Virus record (IMG/VR): IMGVR_UViG_3300013958_000126
Span: 1 to 64,000 of that record
Origin: a virus
DNA: 64,000 bases
Strand: one strand, 5' to 3'
Numbering within the stretch: the stretch's first letter is position 1; each line of letters begins with the position of its first letter. The notes under the pieces are model-generated. The model was not told the DNA's origin. It did not search any database and saw nothing but the letters and a program-made list of their open reading frames with translations. Of the stretch, positions 1,795 through 45,171 are shown in pieces. A program made the position numbers and the translations under genes.

Positions 1795-1809
1795 AGTGTA
1801 TCCTCCCTT

Positions 1810-3687: not shown

Positions 3688-4157
3688 TCTCCTCTCAGTT
3701 TATTCAAAAGTTCTACAGCTTTCTCAGGAGTCATCTTCGGATGTACTTCATCATTGACAGTCAGTGTGGGGGCAAGTCCACATGCACCCAGACAGGATAC
3801 TGTTTCTACGGTAAAAAGCATGTCATCTGTAGTGTGTTTCTTGTTGCTCAGTCCAAGTTCCTTCATCAAAGCCTCTTTTACAGGCATGGATTTTCTCACA
3901 TGACAGGCTGTTCCGTCACACACTTTAATGACATATTTCCCTTTCGGCTCAAAAGAAAAATTCTCATAGAATGTGGCTACACTGTAGGCCTTGGCTTCTT
4001 TTACTCCGATTTCTTTCGCTACATAAGTCAGCAATTCTCCCGGCAGGTAACGATATTCCGCCTGAATATCCTGCATGATCGGAATCAGCGATGCTGCTGT
4101 ACGTCCGTAGTGCTCGATGATCTCATCCGCTTTTCTGTAATAAGACTGGTCTAACAT
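3678..4157 (-). CDS. hydC: NuoE-like 2Fe-2S thioredoxin-fold subunit of hydrogenase (HydC/HndA)
   Basis: 159 aa; CDGTACHVRKS ... CLGACGLAP cysteine pattern of NuoE family; strong SD (AAGGAGGGAAC) upstream of ATG at 4157. Confidence 0.85.
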   Translation of the reverse strand: MLDQSYYRKADEIIEHYGRTAASLIPIMQDIQAEYRYLPGELLTYVAKEIGVKEAKAYSVATFYENFSFEPKGKYVIKVCDGTACHVRKSMPVKEALMKELGLSNKKHTTDDMLFTVETVSCLGACGLAPTLTVNDEVHPKMTPEKAVELLNKLRGECV

Positions 4158-4606: not shown

Positions 4607-5815
4607 TTAGCTGATTTTTTGGAATGCTCTGCACGTATTTATATCATTCATCGTACTTTCTAACAACTTAATGTCACTCATTTTTTTATCACTTAAAACT
4701 TCTGTATAGATATCCATGGTCATCTGAATATTTGTATGTCCAAGATATGATTGTACTGTCTTTGGTGGGATTCCTGCCTCAAAACAGCGTGTGGCAAATG
4801 TGTGTCTAAATGTATGCGCACTAAATTTTGGCATCAGAGGCTGATTTTGAGATGCTCTAATTTTATTAACATTATTTCTTACTGTACGTATCGAACTACC
4901 AAGTACTTCATCCATCAAGGGTCTATTATTTCTTGTCACGAAAAGGAGCTTACCAAGAACGTCAGAGTCATAATCAATCGGTGGCAATGTATTGAGCTGC
5001 TGTACTTGATCTTCAATTGCTTTTCTGCATATGGAATTCATCGGTACGGTTCTTATACTGGATTTAGTTTTTGGTATGCTGATTTTGTATCCTAAAAAAT
5101 CATCTTTTGAAGATTTTCTAAAATAAGTTAAAGTTTTAGTAACATTTATAGTATTATTTTCAAAATCAATATCATCTAAAGTAAGCGCTCTCAGTTCTCC
5201 TGAGCGAAGTCCTGTATTAACTGCGACAACATATAGATTATAATAGAAGCATCCTTTCGCCATAAAGAAGAAATCTCTTTGATCCTCACGGGATAAGGTA
5301 ACGATTTTTCTTTTGTCAGTTCCGATTATTTTTATGCCTTTTGCCGGGTTTTTAGTACATAAATCATTATCCATAGCATAAGAGAATAAATCGCACAAAA
5401 CTGTACGTATATTATTGACTGTACTTTTATGTAACCTTTTACCCAGCCCGTTAAGTAAATCTGTTACCATCAATTTAGTAATTGATGACAATGGCAATCT
5501 ACCTAGTACAGGTTTTATATAGCAATGGTATGTACGTATATATATTCTAATTGTACTTGGCTTCAGAACAGGTTCTTTATATACCCTCATCCACTTTTCA
5601 TACCACTGATCCAAAGTCATACTGGAGTCTACTACATTATTCTTACTGTAATTATCTACAACTTCACTCATTAATGCATTTTTAACTTCTTTTAAAGTTA
5701 TCCCGTATACGCATCTACGTTTCCCGAACCTATCTGTAAATCGGGCTTGATATCTACCGTCCTTTCTCTGTGAAATGCCCTTTCCGAGTTCTTTACCTTT
5801 TAAATCTTTTCCCAT
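4607..5815 (-). CDS. int: Tyrosine-type site-specific integrase (phage integrase family)
   Basis: 402 aa; C-terminal catalytic signature HTFRHTFAT ... GHTNIQMTMDIYTEV (R-H-R-Y family), N-terminal basic arm-binding region; sits at host/element GC boundary. Confidence 0.85.
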   Translation of the reverse strand: MGKDLKGKELGKGISQRKDGRYQARFTDRFGKRRCVYGITLKEVKNALMSEVVDNYSKNNVVDSSMTLDQWYEKWMRVYKEPVLKPSTIRIYIRTYHCYIKPVLGRLPLSSITKLMVTDLLNGLGKRLHKSTVNNIRTVLCDLFSYAMDNDLCTKNPAKGIKIIGTDKRKIVTLSREDQRDFFFMAKGCFYYNLYVVAVNTGLRSGELRALTLDDIDFENNTINVTKTLTYFRKSSKDDFLGYKISIPKTKSSIRTVPMNSICRKAIEDQVQQLNTLPPIDYDSDVLGKLLFVTRNNRPLMDEVLGSSIRTVRNNVNKIRASQNQPLMPKFSAHTFRHTFATRCFEAGIPPKTVQSYLGHTNIQMTMDIYTEVLSDKKMSDIKLLESTMNDINTCRAFQKIS

Positions 5816-8183: not shown

Positions 8184-8374
8184 TTAAAAACCTCTTTAGA
8201 ATCAGTTCCTTTCTTAAATCCAAAGAACGGAACATCTTCTTTAAAAGTATAATCATCATTAATATAGTAACATGGATGCTTTTTTGTCTTTATAAAGAAG
8301 CATTCCTCTTGCGTTAACTCACAACAGTTAAATAAAAAATTTTCTCTATAATAATCACAATTGAGACAATTCAT
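8168..8374 (-). CDS. Small Cys-rich hypothetical protein
   Basis: 68 aa, CxxC-type cysteines. Confidence 0.35.
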   Translation of the reverse strand: MNCLNCDYYRENFLFNCCELTQEECFFIKTKKHPCYYINDDYTFKEDVPFFGFKKGTDSKEVFKWQNI

Positions 8375-8515
8375 TTTAGTTTTTTACTCCCTTTAACTCA
8401 TTAACAATGGTAACAAAAACGCCCATAAGCACCATGCTGAATGCGTGACTTCAATGCCTACAATTACTGCTAATGCAGTTGAAATCCATGCTGCTGCTTT
8501 TGCAAATTCCATATC

Positions 8516-8758
8516 CTAATTCTCCTTCAATACCATAATTACTGCATCACAGATACCAATAATTCTTTGAAATTTTTCATCCTTCATACAAGCATTTACG
8601 CTAGATATCTCATATCCATTTTTCGCAAGCTCTTTTATTTCAGACATCCATTCAACAACAATGTTACTACCGGATTTTTCCTGAGACGTTTTTTTATCTG
8701 GTGGTGATACGTAAGGCAATTGTTGCGGCCTTCCTGGTGTCATATCTGCTTCCTCCAT
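8516..8758 (-). CDS. Hypothetical protein
   Basis: 80-aa ORF. Confidence 0.35.
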   Translation of the reverse strand: MEEADMTPGRPQQLPYVSPPDKKTSQEKSGSNIVVEWMSEIKELAKNGYEISSVNACMKDEKFQRIIGICDAVIMVLKEN

Positions 8759-8796
8759 TAATTTAATATAATTCCTTTAATGTTTTTATCATAATT

Positions 8797-9372
8797 TTAA
8801 TTCTCCTTTATGCTTTCCATAAGTTCACTACGAATTTCATTATACATTTTATGTAACTTAGGATTAACAAAAGTCATCCATTCTCGCCGTTTATCCTGTA
8901 TCATAAGTGCTCTCAACATGGTCCCAGAGATGGGTAATTCTTCACGATTAATGATTAATTCGGTTGTGTTCTTTAAATCTTTCTTGTCGAACCATCCACT
9001 CCGGCTATCATCATTACCATAAATCATTACATCTGGATTTTTATAAATATATCGATCTGCATTTTGAAGAAGATATCTACCCCAATCTGGTGTGATATCA
9101 TTTTCATCAGTAAGGTCTGATAATGCATAAATCATAATGTTTGGATCATCACCATATACTTCACGTATCATCTTGATTCTAGTATTAACATTCAAAGGAT
9201 TACGTTTTGTCCCACATTCTTGTGCACTGCCAACAAGAATAAGCATCCGATCACAAAGCAATAACCCAGTATCAATAAGTTTTTCATGGCCTTTGTGGAA
9301 CGTTTGAAAACGCCCACAAACAAGCCCAACATCATATGGTTTCATGTTATTTCTTCTCCTCTTTAATTCCAA
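8797..9372 (-). CDS. nadM: Nicotinamide/nicotinate mononucleotide adenylyltransferase (NadM-type NMNAT)
   Basis: 191 aa; cytidylyltransferase-fold signature GRFQTFHKGH (HxGH) as in archaeal/phage NMNATs. Confidence 0.75.
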   Translation of the reverse strand: MELKRRRNNMKPYDVGLVCGRFQTFHKGHEKLIDTGLLLCDRMLILVGSAQECGTKRNPLNVNTRIKMIREVYGDDPNIMIYALSDLTDENDITPDWGRYLLQNADRYIYKNPDVMIYGNDDSRSGWFDKKDLKNTTELIINREELPISGTMLRALMIQDKRREWMTFVNPKLHKMYNEIRSELMESIKEN

Positions 9373-9607
9373 GTGTATAAATAAATGTTACTAAGAACAC
9401 AATGGAAAAAGCGATATATATAATAATTGCTGCAGGAATAGTAAATATAACTGTAAGAAATATATATATCTTACCGAACCAATTTTTATTTTGGGACCAC
9501 TTTTTATATTCTTTTATTGGTAATAATTCATCAATTGCACAATTAATTATTAAAATTGTTGTGAAAAGAATTTCGATTAACAAGAATGATATAAATATGT
9601 TCTCCAT
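9347..9607 (-). CDS. Small membrane protein
   Basis: 86 aa, two hydrophobic helices. Confidence 0.4.
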   Translation of the reverse strand: MENIFISFLLIEILFTTILIINCAIDELLPIKEYKKWSQNKNWFGKIYIFLTVIFTIPAAIIIYIAFSIVFLVTFIYTLGIKEEKK

Positions 9608-10368
9608 TATTCTGCCTCCACTTTTAATTCAGGATTAAATACCGGAATCTTCTCTGATTTGAAGAGACATCGTTTATGCATTAAATCAATCTTAGCTTTT
9701 ACAGCCAGATCGTCAATCTCTCCTGTACGAAGATATCTGTCCAGAACTTCATATGGGAATCCTAAATTGTCCTCATCTGTCTTTCCACATAATCCATCAA
9801 TTGGAATCTTTTCAATAAGTTCTGTAGGAAGCAATAATTCATATCCAAGTTTTTTAACTTCATATACAGTTAATTTTCCTAACGGACTAAAATCACCTGC
9901 CGAATCACCATACCTGGTTTCATAACCGACATATGATTCTGAAAGATTACATGTATTTGCTACTCTTCCATTACAAGACTGAGAGACAGCATATAATGTA
10001 GACATTCTAATACGTGCCGGAAGATTTATTTTTGTCTGTTCGCTGATCTCGATTCCTGAGCTTTCGAGTCTTGACAATACACTTCGAACTGTGTCGCTAA
10101 TGTTGATTTCGTATGATTTAATATCAAGAAATTCACAAAGCTTGTACGCAGCATAAATATCTTTCTGCTGACCCTGTGGCATTAGTACACCAATTACACG
10201 ATCTTTTCCAAGAGCTTCTACACAAAGCGCTGCTACTACGGAAGAATCTTTTCCACCAGAGATTCCTACAATTGCATTGCAGCCGGGACCATTCTGATCG
10301 AACCAGTCTCTGATCCACTGTACAATTTCATTCTTGAGTTCTTTAAAATATCCATCGTAATATTTCAT
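9607..10368 (-). CDS. nadE: NH3-dependent NAD+ synthetase
   Basis: 253 aa; PP-loop ATP pyrophosphatase motif GISGGKDSS and NadE-like downstream blocks. Confidence 0.8.
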   Translation of the reverse strand: MKYYDGYFKELKNEIVQWIRDWFDQNGPGCNAIVGISGGKDSSVVAALCVEALGKDRVIGVLMPQGQQKDIYAAYKLCEFLDIKSYEINISDTVRSVLSRLESSGIEISEQTKINLPARIRMSTLYAVSQSCNGRVANTCNLSESYVGYETRYGDSAGDFSPLGKLTVYEVKKLGYELLLPTELIEKIPIDGLCGKTDEDNLGFPYEVLDRYLRTGEIDDLAVKAKIDLMHKRCLFKSEKIPVFNPELKVEAE

Positions 10369-10369
10369 C

Positions 10370-10729
10370 TTATAATCCTCCTAAACAATTAATATATTGT
10401 TTAACATTGCCATTATCATATGTCTTTGTAATCAATACGGCAGACACTGTTTGTCCTATTCTTCCATGATATTTACGATATGTACTTTCATCACTAAGTG
10501 AATATTCCACTCCGTTATAGTCTACCGTAATTTCATACTCGGCATAATCTGTCCGAAATTGTGGAACATGATTAATTATACCTATGAAACGAGTTTCTTT
10601 CGGTTTATAGTATTCATTAACAATTTTGACTTTTACACTTTCTTCTTTCTTATCAATACATTTAGCGCAACCAGTCAACATAAATGCACTGATAAGCAGA
10701 AGAATTAATATAGTAGTTACCTTTTTCAT
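10370..10729 (-). CDS. Putative lipoprotein
   Basis: 119 aa; signal peptide with lipobox LTGC. Confidence 0.45.
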   Translation of the reverse strand: MKKVTTILILLLISAFMLTGCAKCIDKKEESVKVKIVNEYYKPKETRFIGIINHVPQFRTDYAEYEITVDYNGVEYSLSDESTYRKYHGRIGQTVSAVLITKTYDNGNVKQYINCLGGL

Positions 10730-10783
10730 TTTGATTCCTCCTGCAGTTCCTTTCTTACTTTCATAAGAATTTATATGTAACTC

Positions 10784-11068
10784 CTACTGTCCTTTATGTC
10801 TTGACATATCGACTGTTGTTTTAAAATATTTACCAATTGTTGCAATTGTTGCACAAATAACAGGGATCATTGGTTTCGTAAATCTAGTTGTATTAAATAT
10901 GATATTTAATCCATTAACCAATGCGTCCCCTACAAAAAATTTCAGTATACATCCACCTATGTAAGCAAACATAAATGATAATGCCGGACTAATAACAAGA
11001 GTGAAAATCGCAAGGATGATTACTGTAAACGCACCTATTCCTTCTAATGTATTATCTTTTCTGTTCAT
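10784..11068 (-). CDS. Membrane protein
   Basis: 94 aa, hydrophobic. Confidence 0.4.
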   Translation of the reverse strand: MNRKDNTLEGIGAFTVIILAIFTLVISPALSFMFAYIGGCILKFFVGDALVNGLNIIFNTTRFTKPMIPVICATIATIGKYFKTTVDMSRHKGQ

Positions 11069-11477
11069 TTAATTCCTCCGAATCTTTTTCATATTCAACT
11101 ACAATTACATGTAATCCATATCTTCTTGCAGTATCAATCATATTTTTTGTACCTCGCGATTCACCATCCCAAAATGCGATCAACGTACCAGAGCCTGATT
11201 CTGATGCAAATTTTGCCATTTCATTATTACGTCTAGGGCCAGCAGACTTTCCATAAACTCCCCATAACGCTTGAAATCTTATAACGGAGTAACCATTATC
11301 AAACGCATAACATTCACCAAGCCTATCTGCACCTTTTGCACCACCACTGATAACTCTAATTTGCTGAGTGTTATTAACTTGATTCTCTTCGATATAATCT
11401 GACACAGTTTTCTTAAGCAAACGATAATCATCAAAATCTCGTGAACCGGCTATAATAATATTCATCGCCTCGCTCAT
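11052..11477 (-). CDS. SLOG/DprA-like Rossmann-fold protein (DUF2493-like)
   Basis: 141 aa; IIAGSRDF ... VISGGAKGADRLGE ... FWDGESRGT pattern typical of the Smf/DprA-LOG (SLOG) superfamily. Confidence 0.5.
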   Translation of the reverse strand: MSEAMNIIIAGSRDFDDYRLLKKTVSDYIEENQVNNTQQIRVISGGAKGADRLGECYAFDNGYSVIRFQALWGVYGKSAGPRRNNEMAKFASESGSGTLIAFWDGESRGTKNMIDTARRYGLHVIVVEYEKDSEELNEQKR

Positions 11478-12016
11478 TCATCCAGCCTCCATAATTCCAC
11501 ATCATAATCTTTAAGTTCCTCTTCAATGATTTTATAAACCATTTCCCAGTCTGCTCCCCCTCTTCCACAACCAATCTTATACGGAAGTGCTACTGAAGTT
11601 CTACAAAGATCTTTTCCTTCTAGTCCATTTTTTTCACGCCATACTCCAAAATGTTGCGAAATATATCTTAAACCATATCTAAAAGCTTCAAGATCTGTAT
11701 ACTGTTTACCATCATATCCATATTTATTTTGTGCGAATAAAGACAATACAATTTGACCTCTATCTTTCAATAAATATGCATCACACGTTCCGAGTAGTTC
11801 TTCCGACTCGAACTTACAAAACTCACAAAACTTTCTATAGTGTTTATAAATGCCTTCATCATAATCTCTTAATGCTTTAGCGACTCCAGTGTTCATTTCT
11901 CCTTGGCAGTTAACCTGATGAATTATAAAATCTGTCTTTGCATTAACGATATTACCTTCAATAATTTTAATCATAAATCTTTTCCTATAAATCCTGAAAT
12001 GTAAACTTCTCGCCAC
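11474..12016 (-). CDS. Macro-domain protein (ADP-ribose / ADP-ribose-1''-phosphate processing)
   Basis: 180 aa; macro-domain signature IHQVNCQGEMNTGVAKAL (cf. NAxN..GGGV). Confidence 0.65.
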   Translation of the reverse strand: MARSLHFRIYRKRFMIKIIEGNIVNAKTDFIIHQVNCQGEMNTGVAKALRDYDEGIYKHYRKFCEFCKFESEELLGTCDAYLLKDRGQIVLSLFAQNKYGYDGKQYTDLEAFRYGLRYISQHFGVWREKNGLEGKDLCRTSVALPYKIGCGRGGADWEMVYKIIEEELKDYDVELWRLDE

Positions 12017-12392
12017 AGGAGCAAATCACTTCTCCAATAGTTCCGATTGATGTTGGTGTAAAGCACCATGTAAGAGAGCCGCCTATGCAACCATGTCCCA
12101 TTGCTCTCTGTTCCATAGTTTTCAAACCATGTTTCTCAGCATCATGTTTTAATTCCCACTCTCTGATTTTCTCTTGTTCTTTTTCTGAAATTGGAAATCC
12201 TCTATACAGATCCTCTTTCGCTTTTTTCAGTTCTGCTTCCATTCTCTGCATTTCAGAATCTTTATAATGCTCATCTTTGAGTTTCTTGTTTTCTTCTCCT
12301 AAGTATTTAATTCGTTTTTCATAAGTATCTACTTTATCAATAATCCCCTGACAAAGATCTGAAACTGAATCAGTAAAATATGTTCTACTCAT
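11985..12392 (-). CDS. Hypothetical coiled-coil protein with C-terminal Cys cluster
   Basis: 135-aa ORF. Confidence 0.4.
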   Translation of the reverse strand: MSRTYFTDSVSDLCQGIIDKVDTYEKRIKYLGEENKKLKDEHYKDSEMQRMEAELKKAKEDLYRGFPISEKEQEKIREWELKHDAEKHGLKTMEQRAMGHGCIGGSLTWCFTPTSIGTIGEVICSCGEKFTFQDL

Positions 12393-12394
12393 TT

Positions 12395-12934
12395 TTATAC
12401 CTCCTTCATTAAATATTTCACTGGAACCTTTTTAGTCAGCCAAACTCCATTTTTAGATAAGTAAAATTTGTATCCATCTTTGTACATCTGTTCACTATTG
12501 ATAGAATAAACAACTTCTTTACCATGTCTTTTGCCGACAGCTTTGGCAGTTTCAACATCTTTTGACAAATGAACATATAAACGACTTTTAGGAATCAGTC
12601 CGTTCTGATCAATAGACGCTATATATTTCTCGCCAGTTCCATGATAAAGAATTTTAGGTGGCTCTTTCTCTTCCAGTTCTACATCTACCGGAATTGAATG
12701 TCCCTGATTCGCTCTGATCAATGTCTTGTCATCATTGAAAGAATATCGCTGCTTATTGTCAGTCCGTACAATTTCCTCTAAAAATTCTTTGTTGAATCCG
12801 GGATTGTTTTTAGCGATACCCTGAATCAGTTCTTCTACATTCGCCCAACCATGTTCATCTATAGTAATACCAATAACTTCAGGCTTATGTCTTAATATAA
12901 GACTTATATATCTACTAATACTTTGTAAATTCAT
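12395..12934 (-). CDS. kptA: RNA 2'-phosphotransferase Tpt1/KptA (NAD+-dependent)
   Basis: 179 aa; LSLILRH, RANQGHS, HGT motifs of the Tpt1 family. Confidence 0.8.
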
Positions 12935-12949
12935 TCTCTTTACTCCTCT

Positions 12950-13423
12950 TTACTCCATAAATGATGAAACATGTACAGTTACAAAATCGCTATGTGCACG
13001 AATATAATCCAAAGTTTTAACTGTATCTTCTACAATTGCAATCTGAGATGGCTTAAGTCCGAGCTTTTGTTGCAGCGTTTGAAGCACAGTAAGTTTTTCT
13101 GTCTTTTCTAAAGTGAAATAGATATTATCATCTGGCAGATCATAATTGTCTTTTATAAAAGCTCTTTTACCAGGAATTTCATTTAAAGGACTCTTTGAAC
13201 AGGTATATACTTTATTCACGCCTTTCTTCTGAATAAACTCCTGCATTAATTTGATCGGACGCACATCTTTATACGGATTCTCACCGGAAGCTACAAGTCT
13301 GTCCCATTCATCGTCAGTCATACTATGACTTAATTCAGAAAACTCATACGGAGCAAGTACTCCATCTACATCCATTACTACAATCACATCATCTTTTAAT
13401 AAATAATCTGTAATTTTACTCAT
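12950..13423 (-). CDS. HAD-superfamily phosphatase-like protein
   Basis: 157 aa; HAD motif I VVMDVDGVL. Confidence 0.5.
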   Translation of the reverse strand: MSKITDYLLKDDVIVVMDVDGVLAPYEFSELSHSMTDDEWDRLVASGENPYKDVRPIKLMQEFIQKKGVNKVYTCSKSPLNEIPGKRAFIKDNYDLPDDNIYFTLEKTEKLTVLQTLQQKLGLKPSQIAIVEDTVKTLDYIRAHSDFVTVHVSSFME

Positions 13424-14891
13424 CTTTGTTTCTTCCGTTTAATCTGTCTCTGATTTCTTTAAATATTTCTGTATGATATATTTCACCGTCTTTAAATACA
13501 GTTTTTAATGCCCCATCATAAACAAAGCTGTCATATCCATCTCTGCACCTTAATTCTCCATTTTCATCGTAATATACATGACAACATCCTTTATGAGATT
13601 TCTTTAAATGGCTTACATCTGTCTTTGGATCTTTGTAAATCATAATCGGTTGTCCGTTAACTTCTCCAAATGTAGCTTTCATAGCAATGCCGAACATATC
13701 TCTGGTTACAACGACCATACGTCCATCAGGTTCTACAACTGCCGAGAAACAAAAAGCCCCAACTCCAAATACAATGTTGTTTGCAGCGAATCCTTTCTTC
13801 TCAAGTTCTTCCCATACCTTTTTTACATTGTTAAGAGTACAGCCATCACCATAGATAATTCCAATATGAGGGTCCAGTACTTTGTAACCTTTGCTATTTA
13901 CTGATCCTTCAAATGTATTCCAGAGTTTTTCGATAGTCTTAACTGAAATCTCTACCATATCACCAGAATCCGGACGAACCAAGAGCTTACCATTGTGCTG
14001 CATAATTTCTTTTTTGCAAGCTGGAAGAATATTGTCAATCATGTTCCAGTAATCATATGTATCAGATACCATGCTGAAAGATGCATTCGGATATAATTCT
14101 GTAAGTAGTCTTTTCACAAATGTAATTTCGTCTCCGTCCACAGCATAATTTGAAGCCATGACCGCATGTTCGGTAGAAATCGCACCAATTCCAATATGAC
14201 TCACGCTACAGTCATTGAAATAATATTTGTCCAAATAATCAATTGCCGGGATCGTACTTGTCTTATCAAAGGATAATAGCCAAGCAACGGAGCATCTCTC
14301 TGCTTCTTCCATACAGGACATTCCACGCATTCCAAAGTCTGAGCAGGCCATTTCAGGTCTTAAAATGTCGTCGCAGGTCTTTTTATAGTAGAAATTTGCC
14401 AGTTCTCTGTACATATGTCCAATTGTTGCATGAGCACACGGCTTCCAAAGCTCAACCTGCAGAATACACTCAATCCACTGCACAACCCATGCAAAATCTG
14501 GATGTGTATTCGTGATTTCAATGCATGGCACTCCCATAGGCACTAATGTACCTTCCGGTAATGCACGGATCTGAATCGGAAGATACCCTAATTCGTGAAG
14601 TTTAAGGATTGGAGAAATATCGTAATTTCCTTCTCCTAACTGAATGTCCATACTAATTGTATAAAGTTCTTGAACTTCATCAGTGCTTAATTTAAAGAAA
14701 TCTCTTTTAAAATATGTAATAAGATATTCTTTAATAAAAGCCTGCAGTCCGAAGAAAACCATATGATCCTGCTCCTTTAACATTGATCTTCTCGGAGTCC
14801 AATAAGAGACTAACTTCGTCAATCCTCTCGGAAACATATTGTGGTGTACTTGTTTGTAAGTATCGCTTAACAGAATTGCTAAGGTATCCAT
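13416..14891 (-). CDS. nadV: Nicotinamide phosphoribosyltransferase family enzyme (NadV / Namat-like)
   Basis: 491 aa; NAMPT N-terminal LLSDTYKQVH block and full-length similarity pattern; cannot distinguish NadV from Namat by eye. Confidence 0.75.
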   Translation of the reverse strand: MDTLAILLSDTYKQVHHNMFPRGLTKLVSYWTPRRSMLKEQDHMVFFGLQAFIKEYLITYFKRDFFKLSTDEVQELYTISMDIQLGEGNYDISPILKLHELGYLPIQIRALPEGTLVPMGVPCIEITNTHPDFAWVVQWIECILQVELWKPCAHATIGHMYRELANFYYKKTCDDILRPEMACSDFGMRGMSCMEEAERCSVAWLLSFDKTSTIPAIDYLDKYYFNDCSVSHIGIGAISTEHAVMASNYAVDGDEITFVKRLLTELYPNASFSMVSDTYDYWNMIDNILPACKKEIMQHNGKLLVRPDSGDMVEISVKTIEKLWNTFEGSVNSKGYKVLDPHIGIIYGDGCTLNNVKKVWEELEKKGFAANNIVFGVGAFCFSAVVEPDGRMVVVTRDMFGIAMKATFGEVNGQPIMIYKDPKTDVSHLKKSHKGCCHVYYDENGELRCRDGYDSFVYDGALKTVFKDGEIYHTEIFKEIRDRLNGRNKDE

Positions 14892-15259
14892 TATTTTTTA
14901 TCCTCCTCTTTGTCATTTACAATTTTATCAATCTGATCTGTGATATAATCAACTACATCTTTACCAGTTTTGCCAATTGTTTGAATATTATCTGGTGTGA
15001 TTTCATTTACAACTGCCATCGTATATATTGTTTCTGTATTAGGTGTCATGATTGTAATGATAGTCATTACAACACATCCGATAATTAATTTGCTAATAGT
15101 TTTTCTAAACTTAAATGGTTCGTTATATCCGGTTAATCCAGCAAATAAAGCACACATAGCAATAACTCCGCATATTCCTGCGATCATTCCAAAAAATGTT
15201 GTTAAATTATCTGCTCTACTAGCAGAATAAATCAACCAAGGACTAATAATCGGTTTCAT
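14891..15259 (-). CDS. Membrane protein
   Basis: 122 aa, 3 predicted TM helices. Confidence 0.45.
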   Translation of the reverse strand: MKPIISPWLIYSASRADNLTTFFGMIAGICGVIAMCALFAGLTGYNEPFKFRKTISKLIIGCVVMTIITIMTPNTETIYTMAVVNEITPDNIQTIGKTGKDVVDYITDQIDKIVNDKEEDKK

Positions 15260-15272
15260 ATTTTTATCTCCC

Positions 15273-15662
15273 TTATAACTTTCCTATCAAACAGCCCCAA
15301 GTAAAAGCAATCTGAAACATATGAGTTATCTGATCTTGAATTAAATTAATTTTCTTTTTATTGGCTTTCATATCATCTACTAACATATGTATCAATAAAT
15401 TCATAACCAATAATAAAGGATTCCATTTACCGCCAATAATCATAAGCGCAATTGTTGGTGGTAACATAATCATAAATGACCAACTAAAGCTATGCATAAA
15501 CAACGCTGCTAAATAATCATATTTATATAATTTTCCTGGTGCATTCTTTTCCCACCATGATTTTTGTTTTGCAGATGCCAACCATCCTTGTAAATAATAA
15601 TCATCTACAATGTGGCAGAAAATCATTGTAAATAATATAAATATTTTATATGCAATATTCAT
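15273..15662 (-). CDS. Membrane protein (DUF3307-like)
   Basis: 129 aa hydrophobic. Confidence 0.4.
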   Translation of the reverse strand: MNIAYKIFILFTMIFCHIVDDYYLQGWLASAKQKSWWEKNAPGKLYKYDYLAALFMHSFSWSFMIMLPPTIALMIIGGKWNPLLLVMNLLIHMLVDDMKANKKKINLIQDQITHMFQIAFTWGCLIGKL

Positions 15663-16465
15663 TATCTAAACCTTTCAACCAGTTCAATCTTAGGACTTTC
15701 CAGATTTGTTAGAATCGTATCTGTCGTATAAATCTTCTCAATCAGTCCATTGTTTTTCAGAAGTTCTCCTTCATAAATAGTATTCTCACAATGAGTTATA
15801 TAAAGATAAATCTTATTTACTCCTGTTTCTTTTAGTTTCTTAGCACTATAATAAAAAGTACCACCTCTGCTGCAGATATCATCTACAATAAGGATATCTT
15901 TACCTGGCAGTTGATTAATTTCACCTGATAAATCTAAACCTTTAATTTCTCCAGTCTCCCAATCTCTATTCTTAATACCGAAAGCATATGGAAGATGTAC
16001 TGCTGAAGAATATCGCTTCATGGATCCCGCATCCGGATAAAACATCATAAGGTTATTACTCGCAATCTTCTTAACAGCATCCTCAATCATTCGATTCGGG
16101 GATTCTACATGTACTTTATTAAATAATGCGGCAGATACATCAGAATGCGGATCTAAAACTTCTACTTTTCCAAAATGTAATGAATTAATAGTCTGAGCAA
16201 AATATTTTAAAGTAAATAATTCGTTCTCATGCTTGACTCGATCCATACGTGCATCTGGGATATAAGGCATATATAAATTAGGCACTACTCTATGATCCCA
16301 ACAATATCTAGTAATATATTCAACTGCTGTTAATTCTTCCATTGATTCAAAGAACCATTCAATATTATCTCTACACCATCCTCCGATGGGTGGGATATTC
16401 TTAAATAAGAATGTCCCATCAGGATATTTGTCAAGTTTGATTTCTACACCGTTTAATTTAATCAT
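15662..16465 (-). CDS. Ribose-phosphate pyrophosphokinase family enzyme, N-terminally trimmed (Prs / Adps-like)
   Basis: 267 aa; PRPP-binding loop ILIVDDICSRGGT, PP-loop-like PDARMDR, FYPDAGSMKRY. Confidence 0.75.
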   Translation of the reverse strand: MIKLNGVEIKLDKYPDGTFLFKNIPPIGGWCRDNIEWFFESMEELTAVEYITRYCWDHRVVPNLYMPYIPDARMDRVKHENELFTLKYFAQTINSLHFGKVEVLDPHSDVSAALFNKVHVESPNRMIEDAVKKIASNNLMMFYPDAGSMKRYSSAVHLPYAFGIKNRDWETGEIKGLDLSGEINQLPGKDILIVDDICSRGGTFYYSAKKLKETGVNKIYLYITHCENTIYEGELLKNNGLIEKIYTTDTILTNLESPKIELVERFR

Positions 16466-17572
16466 TTAGTTCTCCTCACGTTCAAACAATTTTAATTTCC
16501 AGTTATCTTTGAATATTTTATGTATTTCATAAAGAGATATATTAGACTCGCAATATTCATTCATATGAGTCATAGCCAATGTCTTTCGACATGGGATTCC
16601 AGAGGTTTTTATGTCTGCTTGACATCTTTCATATAGTTCTTCAACATTTAACTTCCCATATCTCAAAGTATCCTGATGCGGATTTGGAACATTGGTTAAA
16701 TCTTTTATGTCTGGATTAATCTCTTCCTTATTACATTCAGTTGGGAACGCACCGGCTCCATGTCTAGTCATATATGTACGTGTCACATAACAAGCTTCTA
16801 TATTAATCTCATCAGTCCAATTTACAGACTTTATAATTCTTGCAGGATTTTTAATACCAGTGTTGGATGGAGTAAGATGTGGGTAATATTCAGTATTATT
16901 TTGATCTAAAAGAAGCCCCTGCCCATTTTCAAATACTATGATATCGTATCCATCAAGTAATTGATCATCATTCACGACATGTATGTGCGACATCATAAAA
17001 TCAAAATCTTCATTGTAATGGTCTTGAAGCCAAGGATTTTTGAAATGATTAAATAATTCTTCTTCCTGCTCAGATAACGTAATTCCCATGCGCTTGAACA
17101 TATTCATATAATATGACCATGACGATGAATATGAAGTAATATGTTTTTTATAGCGTTGAATTGTATTATAAATACCCATTCCACAGCTTCCGTGTTTATT
17201 ATTACCGCGGCTTTTCTCGATTATTTGATTTGCCATCATATCAAAAGGATTTGTAATCATACATTTTTCATGAACATACACATGAGGTTTCCATCCTAAT
17301 TTCTTCAACTCTTCCCATTCTTCCCTAAATACCAGAGGATTTAAAATAAAATCCTCCGGTAAATAAGTATCTGCTCCGTTTAATGTTCCAGAGCCGAAAT
17401 GGTGAAAGACATGCCGGGTTCCATCTGATTTTAATACTGTATGTCCTCTCTGAGCGCCGCCATTTGAACACACAACGATACAGTTATCTGCATTTTTAGT
17501 ATAATAATCTGTTAATTTGCCCTTACCCTCGTCACCAAAGTTTGCCCCGATGACAATTTTTATATCTTTCAT
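16466..17572 (-). CDS. Adenylosuccinate synthetase family ligase (short PurA/PurZ-like)
   Basis: 368 aa; PurA P-loop GDEGKGK, GGAQRGHT, HGSCGMGIYNT (cf. TGRGIGP) blocks; start abuts Prs-like stop. Confidence 0.65.
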   Translation of the reverse strand: MKDIKIVIGANFGDEGKGKLTDYYTKNADNCIVVCSNGGAQRGHTVLKSDGTRHVFHHFGSGTLNGADTYLPEDFILNPLVFREEWEELKKLGWKPHVYVHEKCMITNPFDMMANQIIEKSRGNNKHGSCGMGIYNTIQRYKKHITSYSSSWSYYMNMFKRMGITLSEQEEELFNHFKNPWLQDHYNEDFDFMMSHIHVVNDDQLLDGYDIIVFENGQGLLLDQNNTEYYPHLTPSNTGIKNPARIIKSVNWTDEINIEACYVTRTYMTRHGAGAFPTECNKEEINPDIKDLTNVPNPHQDTLRYGKLNVEELYERCQADIKTSGIPCRKTLAMTHMNEYCESNISLYEIHKIFKDNWKLKLFEREEN

Positions 17573-17581
17573 ATATTCTCC

Positions 17582-18478
17582 TTACCAAACAATAGCTCCT
17601 GATTCATCTGTCTTTGCCTGAACTAATGGTGTTACTTCTGGGATGTTGTTGCTTTCATTTGCAGAAGTAATAATTTCTACAATTGTATCTGTAATATCAT
17701 CAAGTTTATTAATTGTACAAAAATGCTTATCATCAAGATATTCTAAAAATGATTTTTTAATTTGCTCTTGGTCATACCCACCACGATGATTTACATTAAT
17801 ATGATAGATATCAAATTTCTCAGCAGTTTCTGTATACAAGTCTTTTGTTTCTACATCAGCCTGAAGTGAATCTCCTGTAGCATTTGATAAGCCACAATAA
17901 TATGCTGTCCTTGGAAGATAAGGATTAAGTCTCTCATCACCAATTGTGATAATTATTCCTTTTTTACCTCTATTCCAACAATCAAGCTTTGTATGTCTGG
18001 CACCAAAATACCATGCAGCAGTGTAAGATTCATAAGAATTACCACCACCACCAAACTCAAAATAAACTTTCTCAAGCTGTTCTGCAATTCGAATATCGGA
18101 TTCAAACTGAGATGCCTGTATTGGAAACCTATCATATGACAAATCGCCAATACCCATTACCATAAATTCAATATCTTCAACTTGTTCATATAATTTCGTC
18201 ATAATATTATTAAGTTTTTTAGATATTTCAACAGCTGCCTGCCCCATAGATCCGGTAACATCTAAAGCTAAAATAACTGGAACTGTATTTGGATGTTCTT
18301 TACTATCACAACATTCTCTTACGACATTTTTAGGATTGAGTGATGAATCAAGTTCTTTTGATTTAAACATTTCCTGATTAGAATAGCTTTTTGTGACTAC
18401 TCCTCGTGAATCAGTGTCATATCCTCTTGTTGTTGCATAATTTACAAAACTTGCCGTTGTCCAACTTCCGCTTCCCAT
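17582..18478 (-). CDS. von Willebrand factor A (vWA) domain protein
   Basis: 298 aa; MIDAS motif DVTGSM. Confidence 0.6.
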   Translation of the reverse strand: MGSGSWTTASFVNYATTRGYDTDSRGVVTKSYSNQEMFKSKELDSSLNPKNVVRECCDSKEHPNTVPVILALDVTGSMGQAAVEISKKLNNIMTKLYEQVEDIEFMVMGIGDLSYDRFPIQASQFESDIRIAEQLEKVYFEFGGGGNSYESYTAAWYFGARHTKLDCWNRGKKGIIITIGDERLNPYLPRTAYYCGLSNATGDSLQADVETKDLYTETAEKFDIYHINVNHRGGYDQEQIKKSFLEYLDDKHFCTINKLDDITDTIVEIITSANESNNIPEVTPLVQAKTDESGAIVW

Positions 18479-18480
18479 AA

Positions 18481-19113
18481 TTATTCATCCTCCTCTAAAT
18501 CATCTTCACTATCTTCTGTGTCTGTATCATCCATGCTAAAATCAAACATACCGTCAAATACATCACCAATACCACCATTCATCATCATAAATGGCATCAT
18601 AGCACTCATTGGATTACTGTCTGTTCCAGTTCCGGTACCGGCCGCTCCATTCATCATCTGGGACATCATCATATATTTAAAGATTTTATTTGCACTATTC
18701 TTATCTTTTCCAAGATTACTTCCAAACATAGATACAATTTTTCCATAGAAATAAGTATTTCCCATAAATACATGGCGCTCCGGCAGAATTGTTTCAACTG
18801 TAGAATCTTCATAATTGATTACAGTGATCTTTGTTTTATCTGCTTCGATGACGCACTTAGGTTTGCCATTTACAAGGATGATGTCTCCTTTAGCCACCTT
18901 ATTTGTTGGAATGACGAAGAAAAAGTTTTCATCTACTCCTGGGAATACAAAATTTCCACAGTTTGTGAGCTTACCGGATTTAACATTGTAACTCTTATAT
19001 CCATTAGAGGTTTTTACTGCGATATTACCACTCATAGATAACTTACACATTCCACTACCAATTTTTCCAAACATTCCATTCATAAAATTATTCATCATTT
19101 TAATTCCCTCCAT
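18481..19113 (-). CDS. Hypothetical Met-rich protein with poly-acidic C-terminus
   Basis: 210 aa; MMxxMM low-complexity segment, DTDTEDSEDDLEEDE tail. Confidence 0.45.
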   Translation of the reverse strand: MEGIKMMNNFMNGMFGKIGSGMCKLSMSGNIAVKTSNGYKSYNVKSGKLTNCGNFVFPGVDENFFFVIPTNKVAKGDIILVNGKPKCVIEADKTKITVINYEDSTVETILPERHVFMGNTYFYGKIVSMFGSNLGKDKNSANKIFKYMMMSQMMNGAAGTGTGTDSNPMSAMMPFMMMNGGIGDVFDGMFDFSMDDTDTEDSEDDLEEDE

Positions 19114-19121
19114 TGTTTAAT

Positions 19122-19784
19122 TTAATTTCTATTGATTACATTAATCTGGCAGCTTTCCATTACATCAAGAGCCGCTTTATGCTTTTCCGGTGTTGATCCT
19201 GCGCAGCATGATGCATCAACTGTGATTTTTGCCTCTGGATAATAAGTTTTAATCAAAAGAGCGTTCGTAATAACACAGATATCTGTGCATATGCCAATAA
19301 TTTCAATATCTAATAAAGAACCATCTGTAGTATTAAATATTTCTTCCCAATCCCAGTCATCAAATCCAAAAGTAGATTTACAACATACCATAAAACTATC
19401 GAGATTTTTATAATCAAGTTCATCAACAATTTCCCAACCTTTAGTACCATACATACAATGTTCAGGAAGTTTTCTGCCCTCTGAAGTATCTGCGTAATCT
19501 GAATGATGAGTATCCTTTGTAAGAATTACATTGTTCTTATTATTCTTATATTCATCAAATTTCTTTTTCACATTTGGTACAATAGCTTGTGCTTCCGGTG
19601 TTCCAAGAACTCCTGTCACAAAATCATTCTGCACATCAATTACAATCAGAACTTTCTTCTTCTCTTTTTTCATTTTTATTCTCCCATTCTTTAATTTGCT
19701 GTGCTCCATCTTCAACTTGCTGCTTATCATGTCTTGAATAGTTATCTGCTGGACCATAAGCACCTTTATGTCGATATGAGGCAT
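19122..19784 (-). CDS. Isochorismatase-family hydrolase (nicotinamidase PncA-like); true start probably internal Met (MKKEKKK, ~19673)
   Basis: VLIVIDVQNDF, catalytic Cys context GICTDICV. Confidence 0.6.
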   Translation of the reverse strand: MPHIDIKVLMVQQITIQDMISSKLKMEHSKLKNGRIKMKKEKKKVLIVIDVQNDFVTGVLGTPEAQAIVPNVKKKFDEYKNNKNNVILTKDTHHSDYADTSEGRKLPEHCMYGTKGWEIVDELDYKNLDSFMVCCKSTFGFDDWDWEEIFNTTDGSLLDIEIIGICTDICVITNALLIKTYYPEAKITVDASCCAGSTPEKHKAALDVMESCQINVINRN

Positions 19785-19995
19785 GTCCTTTCCGAGTATT
19801 AGTTTTTACTGCAGTTCCACCCATGCCAAGTCGTCCACTGTGTCCTTTATGTAACATCCCCCTCTTTAAAATCAGGATCGTTCAAAGTTTTATATCCATG
19901 ATACATAAGTTCTCGTTGACTTATTAATTTTTTTCTACGTTCAATATTTCGTAGTCTTTGCTTTCTCAAATACCCTCTGTTACGTTCCGGCATTA

Positions 19996-20454
19996 CTATT
20001 CCTCCAGTCTATACAAAATAATTGGTCCACCTTCAATATAGAACGTCGCATTGTAATCTATAAATTCTCTAGCCTCATCTTCTGTCATATCCTCATGGTT
20101 AACTAAAGATTCAACCATTTTTTCGTAATCATATATTGCTCTATCATCAGAAGAAACACCAAGAAACGCATCTTCATAAGATGGATTTGTAAAGAATATC
20201 GTTCCCTCGTACCCGGCCTCTAACAATAACCGTTCTGTTTTTGATACTTGGTCTTCATATATATTATCTGCATGTGCTTCAATGTCATCATGTAACGTCT
20301 CTTCTGGGTAATCTATAAGAGAATCCATAATATAAGAAGAAGTAATCATATTTAAAGCTTTCTCTTCTGAAATTTGATATTTTCTTTGTAATACATCTTG
20401 CAATCCTTCAATGTAACCCTTAACACTTTCTGTAAGTTCTGACATATCTACCAT
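19996..20454 (-). CDS. Hypothetical acidic protein
   Basis: 152-aa ORF. Confidence 0.45.
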   Translation of the reverse strand: MVDMSELTESVKGYIEGLQDVLQRKYQISEEKALNMITSSYIMDSLIDYPEETLHDDIEAHADNIYEDQVSKTERLLLEAGYEGTIFFTNPSYEDAFLGVSSDDRAIYDYEKMVESLVNHEDMTEDEAREFIDYNATFYIEGGPIILYRLEE

Positions 20455-21206
20455 TATGCGATCCTCACAATCTGTTCATATAGAACTATATCTTTTATTG
20501 TTATTGCTTTATTGTCGTGGTAATGTCCACACAACCAACGCTTATAATCAACATTGCACCTTATTTCTTCCAGATAATTTGTTAACTTATCCGGCTTATA
20601 TAATCCATGTGATAATAATGCTGCTGTAGAAGAAGCTGTACAATGTGTCAGGATAAAATCTACTTTATTATCATGTTCTGCCAGATTCTTTATACCCTCA
20701 TCCATCTCTTTTTCATCTGGCATTTCTCGCTCCCACCATGAAATGTGATTAATTCGGTACATTTTATCCGGATCATCCCTCCATTCTTTTACTCTTGGAT
20801 CGTCAATCTCTAATACTCCATCTGAAATATCATGACTTGAAGCCCCTCCAAAGGTAAAGAATGTTAAATCGTCTATCTCAAACACCTGTCCTCTCATAAG
20901 ATGAATTACTGATGGTTTAATAAAATGTACCTTACCTCCATGCCATTCTTCTACCGGATAAGAATCTAATATATCGTAATTCTCATGATTTCCGTCAATA
21001 AAGAGTGTTGTGAAATGTTTCTCTTCAAGCCAATTCAGGTACCACCTTTGCTGCGGTGAATCTCTCCATATCCCAAAATCTCCAAGAATTATCACATAAT
21101 CGTCCTTCGACATCTCACGCTGTTCGGGAAAAGAATCCATATTAACTCTATGGATCCAATCCCCATGCGTATCTCCAGTTACCCAAATCATGTCCGTGAT
21201 CCCCAA
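20454..21206 (-). CDS. Calcineurin-like metallophosphoesterase
   Basis: 250 aa; GDTHGD ... GDFGIWRD ... GNHEN metal-binding motifs. Confidence 0.7.
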   Translation of the reverse strand: MGITDMIWVTGDTHGDWIHRVNMDSFPEQREMSKDDYVIILGDFGIWRDSPQQRWYLNWLEEKHFTTLFIDGNHENYDILDSYPVEEWHGGKVHFIKPSVIHLMRGQVFEIDDLTFFTFGGASSHDISDGVLEIDDPRVKEWRDDPDKMYRINHISWWEREMPDEKEMDEGIKNLAEHDNKVDFILTHCTASSTAALLSHGLYKPDKLTNYLEEIRCNVDYKRWLCGHYHDNKAITIKDIVLYEQIVRIA

Positions 21207-44227: not shown

Positions 44228-44304
44228 GTTTACTGCCTCCTTAAATATACATTTCAGTGGTTACTATTTTCTTCTGTAATGATCCGCGCGACATCATTAC
44301 AAAT

Positions 44305-44377
44305 GTGATAAGAGTGGACTCGAACCACCGACCTCACTTTTGTAGTGCGCTCTTTCTCCCAACTGAGCTACTTATCA
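44305..44377 (-). tRNA. tRNA-like gene with canonical acceptor, D and T arms but non-canonical anticodon arm
   Basis: Acceptor TGATAAG/CTTATCA, D-arm GCTCAGTTGGGAG, T-arm GGTGGTTCGAGTCCACT; anticodon arm CGCAC-TACAAAA-GTGAG has a G.A mismatch and A33 (possible anticodon CAA). Confidence 0.45.
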
Positions 44378-44582
44378 CTTTTCATGCATGACCTGTCGTG
44401 CTGCAGTCACAACAGGATTATGTGTTCTTTGATCCGCTCAATTCCCTACATTTTCTCTAAAGCTGGATATTTTTACTTATAAAACATCTCAAAAAAACAC
44501 CAGTTTCACGCCATAACTAGAAACGGCTTATTTCTTATTGGAACTCTACAGCCTATAAAAGTCACTCCTTCATCAGGAGAAA

Positions 44583-44656
44583 TGGAAACTCTGGGACTCG
44601 AACCCAGGACCGACCGGTTATGAGCCGGTTGCTCTAACCAACTGAGCTAAGTTTCC
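44583..44656 (-). tRNA. tRNA-Met (anticodon CAT; could be initiator, elongator or Ile2)
   Basis: Acceptor GGAAACT/AGTTTCC, anticodon stem-loop CCGG-CTCATAA-CCGG, T-loop GGTTCGAGTCC. Confidence 0.75.
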
Positions 44657-45091
44657 TTTGTAGTGGGCGTTATAATTACACCCACAATATAGAAATGTAA
44701 CAATATCTGTAAAAAACTTATCTATGCAATCGCATCAGCTACACGAACAGTCGTCACCATTCCGTTGCCCCATCACTCACCTCTACCTCGCTGACTCAAT
44801 TACTTTTTTGCTTCATAACTAATTACACATCTGCTACCAGATCATCCTCCAACGCCCACTCACAACCTCATTAGCACAAAGCACATCTATATAAATGTTT
44901 CCTTTCAATGCGTCCAAACCATACAACCAACACATTCGCAGCTTCCTCATCACTGGGTTCCAGTATTCCACCAACTTTTCAATCTTCTTTAATGTCCTAT
45001 AGACGCTATATAATATACAGGTTAACCTCTCGGACTTATTTCTCCTCATTACTATTTAGGCCATCAAGTAAATCCGTAAGAATAGTCCGAA

Positions 45092-45171
45092 TACGGATAG
45101 TGGGATTCGAACCCACACGATTTCTCCGAAGGGTTTGAGCCTTCTACGTCTGCCAGTTCCGTCATATCCGC
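45092..45171 (-). tRNA. tRNA-Leu (anticodon CAA), type II with long variable arm
   Basis: Anticodon stem-loop GAAGG-CTCAAAC-CCTTC, variable arm GGAGAAATCGTGT, T-loop GGTTCGAATCC. Confidence 0.65.

Follow-up and report, generated by a model that had tools for sequence, protein, structure and literature searches.

A gene cluster for NAD+ and ADP-ribose chemistry in a gut prophage

The DNA analysed here, called the window, is a 64,000-nt stretch (positions 1 to 64,000) of the IMG/VR record IMGVR_UViG_3300013958_000126 and consists of a bacterial chromosome of gut Clostridia with a large phage integrated in it. Positions 8797-19784 hold 18 consecutive open reading frames (ORFs), all on the minus strand and either overlapping or 0-54 nt apart, with an even GC content of ~33-35%. 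Our reading, to which we give a probability of about 0.6, is that this cluster is an expanded operon of the NAD+ reconstitution pathway 1 (NARP1) type that rebuilds nicotinamide adenine dinucleotide (NAD+) by way of nicotinate, in a large temperate phage of gut Clostridia. A first-pass annotation made from the letters alone had already pointed to a tightly packed, co-oriented island of unusual composition for NAD+ reconstitution against NADases, quoting the motifs GRFQTFHKGH, SGGKDSS and DDICSRGGT. The packing and the motifs were confirmed, the composition is indeed unusual relative to described pathways, and the reconstitution reading was upheld, with counter-defence as the predicted role.

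Window ORFs were compared by profile searches with Pfam, PHROG, NCBIfam and the PDB. The first gene of the unit encodes a PncA-type nicotinamidase (19122-19784; Pfam Isochorismatase, 86.6 bits) that probably starts at a Met at ~19673. Its best PDB match is P. horikoshii PncA (1IM5), with which the Asp-Lys-Cys triad and the Asp-His-His metal site align at six of six residues. Farther along the unit lie a Prs-like homologue of Adps, the ADP-ribose (ADPR) pyrophosphokinase of NARP1 (15662-16465; tblastn matches to the Adps of SPbetaL1 and FADO), and a Namat-like transferase with a nicotinate-type pocket, here called Namat* (13416-14891; NAPRTase and NAMPT_N domains, SPbetaL1 Namat structures). 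These are followed by a macro-domain protein (11474-12016, probable start at a Met at ~11974; phrog_335 'phosphatase', 131 bits; DarG and Poa1p structures) and the NH3-dependent NAD+ synthetase NadE (9607-10368; Pfam NAD_synthase, 180 bits; TIGR00552, 179 bits against a cut-off of 63.65), in which the PP-loop SGGKDSS (SGGxDS) is present.

Among the gene calls of the first-pass annotation, NMNAT, NadE, SLOG, macro, Tpt1, the NAMPT-family, Prs-family and PurA-family enzymes and the nicotinamidase were borne out by profiles, the HAD call proved weak and the vWA call drew no Pfam or PDB support. Seven further ORFs belong to the cluster: four small membrane or lipoprotein-like proteins, a DUF3307 protein, and two proteins named u135 and u210. 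A promoter and terminator scan of 8300-20600 returned counts no higher than in shuffled controls and was thus uninformative about sub-operons.

The Adps, Namat and macro-domain homologues point to NARP1

NARP1 consists of Adps and Namat and is known from phages Bas63, SPbetaL1 and FADO (Osterman et al., bioRxiv 10.1101/2024.02.11.579819). The operons of SPbetaL1 and FADO have been characterised experimentally, and NARP1 was shown to act only when NADases fire. The Prs-like protein of the window shares 41.5% identity with SPbetaL1 Adps over 95% of its length and 34% with FADO Adps (tblastn), and it keeps the catalytic Lys K162 of SPbetaL1 Adps together with R69, D71, H102, D143, R164, D191, D192 and H221. 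SPbetaL1 Adps itself gave no measurable product in a Prs-type assay, and its authors concluded that it is not a Prs. The best PDB matches of Namat* are 9W5X and 9W5W, the structures of SPbetaL1 Namat (PMC12774641), at 372 bits compared with 188 bits for human NAMPT. Two genes separate Adps from Namat*, where NARP1 allows up to 10, and all ~270 sampled relatives of Namat* are linked to an Adps gene.

Since the closest characterised relatives of both proteins belong to NARP1 operons, the Prs-like and NAMPT-like pair is assigned by sequence to NARP1. The first-pass annotation had recognised this signature and had asked for the two proteins to be placed against housekeeping enzymes; the best characterised relatives of the two are Namat and Adps. 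Its further suggestion, that the operon combines NARP1 with NARP2 (NadV plus a nicotinamide mononucleotide adenylyltransferase, NMNAT), did not hold, because the only NAMPT-family gene falls within the Adps-linked radiation of Namat and no separate NadV is present; the NMNAT-like protein lacks a Nudix domain, scores under the curated cut-offs and is found in only 19% of related loci. NARP3, a PnuC-like transporter with a bifunctional NadR-like enzyme (PMC13464706), was also considered and set aside, as the profile searches of the 18 ORFs found neither a PnuC nor a NadR kinase domain.

The macro-domain protein extends the likeness to a second published system. With the phosphatase whose gene Vibrio phage K408 carries between its Adps and Namat genes, it shares 30% identity (E 1e-25). 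In the PDB it matches the DarG macro domain (E 4e-6) and Poa1p (E 0.004-0.007), and it is also recognised by the NCBIfam DarG model; a Pfam scan of the protein returned no match. In NARP1-AP, RES-type defences produce ADP-ribose 1''-phosphate (ADPR-1''P), which the Poa1p-like macro protein Adpp converts to ADPR (bioRxiv 10.64898/2026.01.28.702374). On these similarities the window protein is identified as a homologue of Adpp.

Namat* has a nicotinate-type pocket

Aligned with SPbetaL1 Namat, Namat* places Ser212, Ser239 and Lys210 at the positions of Asp215, Ala242 and Gly213 (FDKTSTIP against FTGTDTIP, an ungapped and well-anchored alignment). The SPbetaL1-like nicotinamide pocket with Asp215 is therefore missing from Namat*. 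Asp215 hydrogen-bonds nicotinamide in SPbetaL1 Namat, and its exchange in D215A cuts nicotinamide-dependent NAD+ synthesis 8.1-fold (PMC12774641); the equivalent Asp219 of human NAMPT is known to determine specificity for nicotinamide. Nicotinate phosphoribosyltransferase (NAPRTase) likewise has Ser here. The catalytic His245 (His242 of the window protein), Arg306 and Asp308 are retained in Namat*; from here on, Namat residues are numbered as in SPbetaL1 Namat. Of the adenine clamp (Arg40, Phe392, Tyr396), Namat* retains Phe392 but has Met for Arg40 and Val for Tyr396, with an insertion of ~10 residues after residue 395.

We collected ~280 Namat-family loci from IMG/VR and GenBank phages with flanks of up to 10 kb on each side and scored their gene content by iterated hidden Markov model searches. 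Position 215 is Asp (128) or Glu (27) in 155 loci and Ser (115) or Ala (3) in 118. The two neighbouring changes follow this division: position 242 is Ser in 112/112 sequences of the Ser/Ala group and Ala in 152/152 of the Asp/Glu group, and position 213 is Lys in 109/112 of the former (Arg in the gut phage Phass-1) and Gly in 152/152 of the latter. Both groups keep Phe189, Arg192, Arg306, Asp13, Tyr15 and the catalytic residues His245 and Asp308 without exception. The switched pocket thus loses a negative charge and gains a hydroxyl and usually a positive charge, as expected for an enzyme that would bind a carboxylate instead of an amide.

The loci with Glu form a Namat subgroup in IMG/VR (27 loci, L171-L194 and related ones) with the motif GSETIP at the amide-binding position; each is linked to an Adps gene, and NadE and PncA are absent from all of them.

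NadE and PncA are co-inherited with the switched pocket

Gene content followed the pocket without exception where the flanks were complete. NadE or PncA occurred within 10 kb in 0/155 Asp/Glu-type loci, while both were present in 99/118 Ser/Ala-type loci; the other 19 are all shorter than 15 kb, with DNA ending early on at least one side. Among loci with full 10-kb flanks, 80/80 of the Ser/Ala type carry NadE and PncA and 0/78 of the Asp/Glu type carry either gene, the 80 and 78 loci amounting to 68 and 49 distinct sequences and to 10 and 36 clusters at 70% identity. The link holds down to 32-37% identity, across changed gene orders and into Phass-1, which uses genetic code 15. Every Ser/Ala-type locus also has an Adps-clade gene with all core residues. 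The first-pass annotation, which listed NadE and the nicotinamidase among the additions to the operon, missed that they are invariant partners of the Namat subfamily with the nicotinate-type pocket.

Both genes are so rare in phages that their clustering in the window is far beyond chance. Among 50,697 GenBank phage records, 1505 have an Adps-like gene, 44 a NadE-like gene and 7 a PncA-like gene, and all 7 of the last are uncultured human-gut phages. Phass-1 (OQ749652.1) has the order PncA-Adps-Namat*-x-NadE; its NadE homologue, annotated 'hypothetical protein' (WIC39685.1; 14974-15897 of locus L001), is 46% identical to the window NadE and lies two genes downstream of an annotated nicotinamide phosphoribosyltransferase.

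Divergent members (L055, L120, L109 and Phass-1) reveal a minimal conserved core, PncA-Adps-Namat*-(macro)-NadE, which in L055 is a four-gene operon whose genes overlap at stop and start. The window version is stretched by insertions: PncA and Adps are parted by u210, the vWA-like and the PurA-like genes, Adps and Namat* by DUF3307 and a 122-aa membrane protein, Namat* and macro by HAD, Tpt1 and u135, and macro and NadE by SLOG with two small envelope proteins; a membrane protein and the NMNAT follow NadE. The arrangement of Namat* with NadE and PncA, likewise missed at first pass, recurs in more than 100 uncultivated gut-phage contigs, which makes it a family and not a one-off, and it is absent from cultured phages.

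Within the island, sequence identities to individual relatives are mosaic. The window Namat* is 99-100% identical to the copies in L006-L009 (Adps 85-100%, HAD 97-99%), where NadE, macro and PncA are only 55-72% identical, and contigs with 96-100% identical NadE, SLOG and Tpt1 have a Namat* that is 82% identical (comparison set L006-L009, L017 and L021-L039). This pattern indicates recombination between lineages within the island.

Accessory genes and a separate PurA-like module

The macro gene is present in 82% of the full-flank Ser/Ala-type loci and in 10% of the Asp/Glu type. The other accessories of the former are less frequent (u135 42%, HAD 29%, PurA/vWA 26%, Tpt1 24%, NMNAT 19%, SLOG 14%) and occur in ~0-3% of the latter, with u135 at 0%. 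NMNAT, Tpt1, SLOG, HAD and the small membrane proteins are accessories confined to particular lineages.

The NMNAT-like protein (8797-9372; Pfam CTP_transf_like) is a NadM-type (archaeal-type) adenylyltransferase-like protein for nicotinamide mononucleotide (NMN) or nicotinate mononucleotide (NaMN). Its PDB matches are the MJ0541 NMNAT and NadM-Nudix enzymes, its own Nudix domain being absent, and it scores 60 bits with the NCBIfam arch_NMN_Atrans model and below all NCBIfam equivalog cut-offs. The Tpt1/KptA RNA 2'-phosphotransferase (12395-12934; Pfam PTS_2-RNA, 165 bits) exceeds its NCBIfam equivalog cut-off (NF002014, 261.2 bits against 239). Tpt1 uses up NAD+ and releases ADPR 1''-2'' cyclic phosphate; once the ring of this by-product is opened, macro phosphatases can act on it. 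The SLOG-family protein (YAcAr/DUF2493; 11052-11477; Pfam PF10686, 50 bits; phrog_289) comes from a family whose members are predicted to act on signals derived from ADPR. The HAD-like protein (12950-13423) is a putative phosphatase with a DVDG motif I and a sub-threshold NCBIfam HAD-IA score (25.8 bits), and u135 (11985-12392), which has a coiled coil and a C-terminal CxC...F motif, had no family match in the profile searches.

Several small proteins of the cell envelope complete the unit. Wedged between Adps and Namat*, at 14891-15662, are two small multi-pass membrane proteins: the DUF3307 protein (15273-15662; Pfam DUF3307, 24.8 bits; phrog_2470), found in 14% of Ser/Ala-type loci, and the 122-aa protein (14891-15259; phrog_3878), whose gene is found in 38% and always between Adps and Namat*. 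Downstream of SLOG lie a 94-aa membrane protein with hydrophobic segments (10784-11068; weak phrog_30257 match) and a 119-aa lipoprotein-like protein (10370-10729) that begins MKKVTTILILLLISAFMLTGC, a signal peptide followed by Cys, and has no family match; an 86-aa membrane protein after NadE (9347-9607) has none either.

The three genes between PncA and Adps behave as a unit. They encode u210 (18481-19113), which has a Met-rich region and an acidic tail and no Pfam or PHROG match; a 298-aa 'vWA-like' protein of phrog_2971 (17582-18478; 257 bits); and a short PurA-type adenylosuccinate-synthetase-like enzyme (16466-17572; 368 aa; Pfam Adenylsucc_synt, 133 bits). A vWA fold is suggested by an LDVTGSMG motif and an alternating beta/alpha pattern alone: the protein has no Pfam match, a 6-sequence family profile found no PDB match at E<=1, and a single-sequence AlphaFold2 model was unusable (pLDDT 35). 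The triad shows invariant N-terminal MG and GGGN..ESY motifs.

Relatives of the PurA-like enzyme occur in Rhizobium, Vibrio and mycobacterial phages. The phrog_2971 protein adjoins it in Rhizobium phage RHph_Y65 and Vibrio phage SRILMA (37-39% identity), and u210 accompanies the two in MT835469.1, L047, L049 and L123. The triad or pair lies at 16466-19113 in the window, 7977-10251 in L002, 8031-10113 in L003 and 13809-16319 in L004, and in L123 and L118 the triad has another location. No Adps or Namat gene was found beside the pair in the Rhizobium and Vibrio phages, nor in the 40 kb examined of the closest relative, MT835469.1, which has the triad. A part for these proteins in NAD chemistry was accordingly rejected, and the triad is read as a separate mobile module, unrelated to NAD rebuilding, that was inserted between PncA and Adps. 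In RHph_Y65, phosphoribosyltransferase-like and NMNAT/Nudix genes (L002 3546-5221) lie ~4-5 kb upstream of the pair, so the pair may still be loosely associated with NAD genes.

Like the PurZ of Z-genome clusters, the PurA-like enzyme is a short phage PurA homologue of phrog_1211. Unlike PurZ, it keeps the PurA catalytic Asp (GDEGKGK), which is replaced by Ser in 100% of phage PurZ (Asp13; PMC12884076; bioRxiv 2025.10.22.683976), and has the phrog_2971 protein as a conserved neighbour. It scores under both curated NCBIfam cut-offs (PurZ, 49.6 against 300 bits; PurA, 108 against 402 bits) and matched no PurZ structure, and a Z-genome role was rejected on these grounds.

The surrounding prophage

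The first 4.2 kb of the window have a GC content of 45% and encode subunits of a HydABC-type electron-bifurcating [FeFe] hydrogenase (106-4157). A Tn916-like tyrosine integrase follows (4607-5815), GC falls to 33%, and the low-GC phage element runs to the end of the window; this succession identifies the element as a prophage. Its relatives are IMG/VR contigs of 100-175 kb, with integrated copies in Ruminococcus sp. AM36-2AA and in metagenome-assembled genomes of Lachnospiraceae and Acutalibacteraceae. In a megablast search of the GenBank phage records, the sole relative at the DNA level was an unannotated human-faecal scaffold, and context was therefore drawn from the IMG/VR loci.

The element encodes a dUTPase, NrdD/NrdG, a DnaE-like polymerase, a RecD-like helicase, an RNA ligase and a guanylate-kinase-like protein. 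The NAD+-dependent ligase LigA (56845-58845) and the DUF2829 protein, both noted at first pass, are present. The latter is a 164-aa Tad2-like protein (53505-53999, minus strand) with the domain at its C-terminus (Pfam PF11195, 84.4 bits against a cut-off of 25), a candidate sponge for the cyclic-ADPR signals of Thoeris that would fit a phage under pressure from NAD+-based immunity.

The RNA ligase gene (PF09414; 42800-43720, minus strand) adjoins four tRNA genes (Cys, Met, Leu and Gln; 44304-46622, minus strand), and together with Tpt1 these suggest a capability for tRNA repair. NAD+-dependent RNA-repair systems have been described for large phages (PMC9503650), and Tpt1 and the RNA ligase would fit such a system. 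Also on the minus strand are a GIY-YIG and helix-turn-helix homing-endonuclease-like gene (48747-49595), a DndB-like protein (60191-61471) and a second tyrosine recombinase (61510-62538).

A predicted route to NAD+ through nicotinate, and its alternatives

In the route that we propose, a host NADase effector of the SIR2, TIR or SEFIR type would split NAD+ into ADPR and nicotinamide; where RES-type enzymes produce ADPR-1''P instead, the macro protein would dephosphorylate it to ADPR and so feed the pathway. PncA would convert nicotinamide to nicotinate and NH3, Adps would use ATP to turn ADPR into its pyrophosphorylated form (ADPR-PP), Namat* would join nicotinate and ADPR-PP to nicotinate adenine dinucleotide (NaAD), and NadE would complete NAD+ from NaAD, NH3 and ATP. 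We give slightly better than even odds to the specific proposal, 'deamido-NARP1', that this Namat-derived enzyme catalyses the undescribed reaction of nicotinate with ADPR-PP to NaAD, in a self-contained four-enzyme cycle with PncA and NadE.

The enzyme identities, the conserved catalytic residues, the pocket substitutions and the strict co-inheritance of the switched pocket with NadE and PncA are what we observed. From them we infer that Namat* is specific for nicotinate, that NaAD is the intermediate and that the operon serves counter-defence. The four-gene operons form a closed cycle from ADPR and nicotinamide to NAD+ only if Namat* makes NaAD, and each gene would be needed in such a cycle, which fits the strict co-inheritance. 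That ADPR-PP is still the donor is argued by Phass-1, in which the switched pocket stands alongside an intact canonical adenine clamp (Y392/Y394/Y396), and by the strong enrichment of Adpp-type macro genes, which points to ADPR-derived substrates. LigA and the Tad2-like protein in the same prophage also count in favour of the proposal.

Several observations weigh against this proposal. In a neighbour-joining tree the sequences of the Ser/Ala type fall essentially into a single deep clade, and Phass-1 stands apart on a long branch, so the perfect association reflects one or a few evolutionary events and not ~100 independent ones; what gives it statistical weight is long-term co-retention across 32-56% identity, shifting gene order and a recoded phage. 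The main Ser clade has exchanged Arg40 for Met and Tyr396 for Val, has a ~10-residue insertion after residue 395, and carries Gly for Ser190 and Ala for Ser391, both of which contact the NMN phosphate. With clamp and phosphate contacts altered in this way, a different ribosyl donor is possible; the clamp loop residue has been described as non-conserved in Namat (PMC12774641). Marletta et al. state that Ser214 alone does not fully account for NAPRTase specificity. What a phage would gain from a detour through nicotinate is also not obvious; we can speculate that an anionic base is trapped in the cell, or that the detour suits hosts with high PncA activity.

The same genes could be put to other uses. 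An unlikely one is a canonical NARP1-AP system in which Namat* joins ADPR-PP and nicotinamide to NAD+ while PncA and NadE act as an independent booster, pushing surplus nicotinamide through host PncB, then host NadD or the phage NMNAT, and finally phage NadE. Gut Clostridia normally salvage via PncA and PncB, the homology of Adps, Namat and macro to characterised systems is as this would have it, and Namat family members retain all catalytic residues. It leaves unexplained, however, the loss of the amide-binding Asp in every NadE/PncA-linked enzyme and never otherwise, and equally the A242S and G213K changes; with nicotinamide the D215A enzyme loses activity 8-fold, PncA would be a competitor of Namat for that base, and the operon lacks PncB. 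More doubtful again is a phage Preiss-Handler pathway on phosphoribosyl pyrophosphate (PRPP), supplied by the Adps-like enzyme or the host, in which Namat* would act as a nicotinate phosphoribosyltransferase to give NaMN, host NadD or the phage NadM-type NMNAT would make NaAD, and NadE would come last (or, in a Francisella-type variant, NadE would convert NaMN to NMN ahead of NadM). The nicotinate-type pocket, the partly altered clamp of the main Ser clade, the use of PRPP by SPbetaL1 Namat in vitro and the closeness of NadE and the NadM-type NMNAT in the window all speak for it. An Adps-clade gene with all core residues in every Ser/Ala-type locus speaks against it, as do the negative Prs-type assay of SPbetaL1 Adps, the presence of NMNAT in only 19% of loci, the intact adenine clamp of Phass-1, and an Adpp-type macro gene in 82% of loci, which is sensible only if ADPR is a substrate.

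We see only a slim chance that the island serves general auxiliary metabolism, raising the NAD+ supply for phage LigA and Tpt1 while the phage replicates in an anaerobic host, and has nothing to do with countering immunity. The prophage does encode LigA, Tpt1 and the RNA ligase, as well as NrdD/G, dUTPase and the guanylate-kinase-like protein. Adps/Namat chemistry, however, starts at ADPR, the product of NAD+ cleavage; NARP1 was active in experiments only when NADases fired; and the Adpp-type macro and Tad2-like proteins would represent dedicated counter-defence functions.

NAD+ depletion is among the commonest antiviral strategies of bacteria, and the commonest phage response known is NARP1. 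Should the Ser/Ala-type enzymes really use nicotinate, they would represent a new enzymatic reaction and a new branch of the NAD+ arms race, and would explain why phage NadE and nicotinamidase genes, very rare otherwise, are found in human-gut phages of Lachnospiraceae and Ruminococcaceae that are abundant. The three-residue signature (213 K/R, 215 S/A, 242 S) would then predict pyridine specificity in the NAMPT/Namat family. More speculatively, the detour may point to a host pressure that favours it, for example rapid deamidation, or a loss of nicotinamide in its free form.

Comparison with known systems

The first-pass annotation knew of no described pathway that includes the NadE, PncA-like, Tpt1, macro, SLOG and PurA-like genes. 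This no longer applies to the macro gene, which matches the published Adpp, and the PurA-like gene belongs to a separable triad. Neither NadE and PncA as obligatory partners nor the pocket signature appears in the NARP papers compared, and a 2022 survey of viral NAD+-ADPr systems mentions neither NadE nor nicotinamidase. A full-text literature search for phage NadE, nicotinamidase or NaAD reconstitution or 'NARP4', limited in coverage, did not find the variant.

The island resembles NARP2 (NadV with the NadM-Nudix enzyme NatV, Vibrio phage KVP40) in having a NadM-type adenylyltransferase-like gene. Unlike NARP2, it has no Adps-independent NadV-type enzyme, and its adenylyltransferase-like gene is the sub-threshold, Nudix-free accessory described above. 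With Preiss-Handler salvage (PncA-PncB-NadD-NadE) it shares a nicotinamidase as first enzyme, an NH3-dependent NAD synthetase as last enzyme and the NAPRTase-type Ser, but it lacks PncB and NadD and would instead use an Adps-paired Namat enzyme with ADPR-PP as the predicted donor, bypassing NaMN.

The closest likeness is to NARP1 and NARP1-AP. As in NARP1, Adps-clade and Namat-clade enzymes with their catalytic residues lie in one phage operon, with ADPR as the expected input. Unlike NARP1, Namat* has Ser, Ser and Lys for Asp215, Ala242 and Gly213 and a clamp changed at Arg40 and Tyr396, two membrane-protein genes separate it from Adps, and PncA and NadE, absent from the 78 full-flank (155 in all) Asp/Glu-type loci, are obligatory partners. 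As in NARP1-AP (Adps-Adpp-Namat, Vibrio phage Gary), a Poa1p/DarG-like macro protein is part of the operon; unlike there, the window gene, whose ADPR-1''P phosphatase activity is predicted, lies downstream of Namat* with HAD, Tpt1 and u135 in between, and such genes occur in 82% of Ser/Ala-type loci compared with ~10-15% of ordinary NARP1 loci. By homology and architecture the island is thus assigned to NARP1/NARP1-AP, yet the pocket of its Namat* would suit nicotinate where theirs holds nicotinamide.

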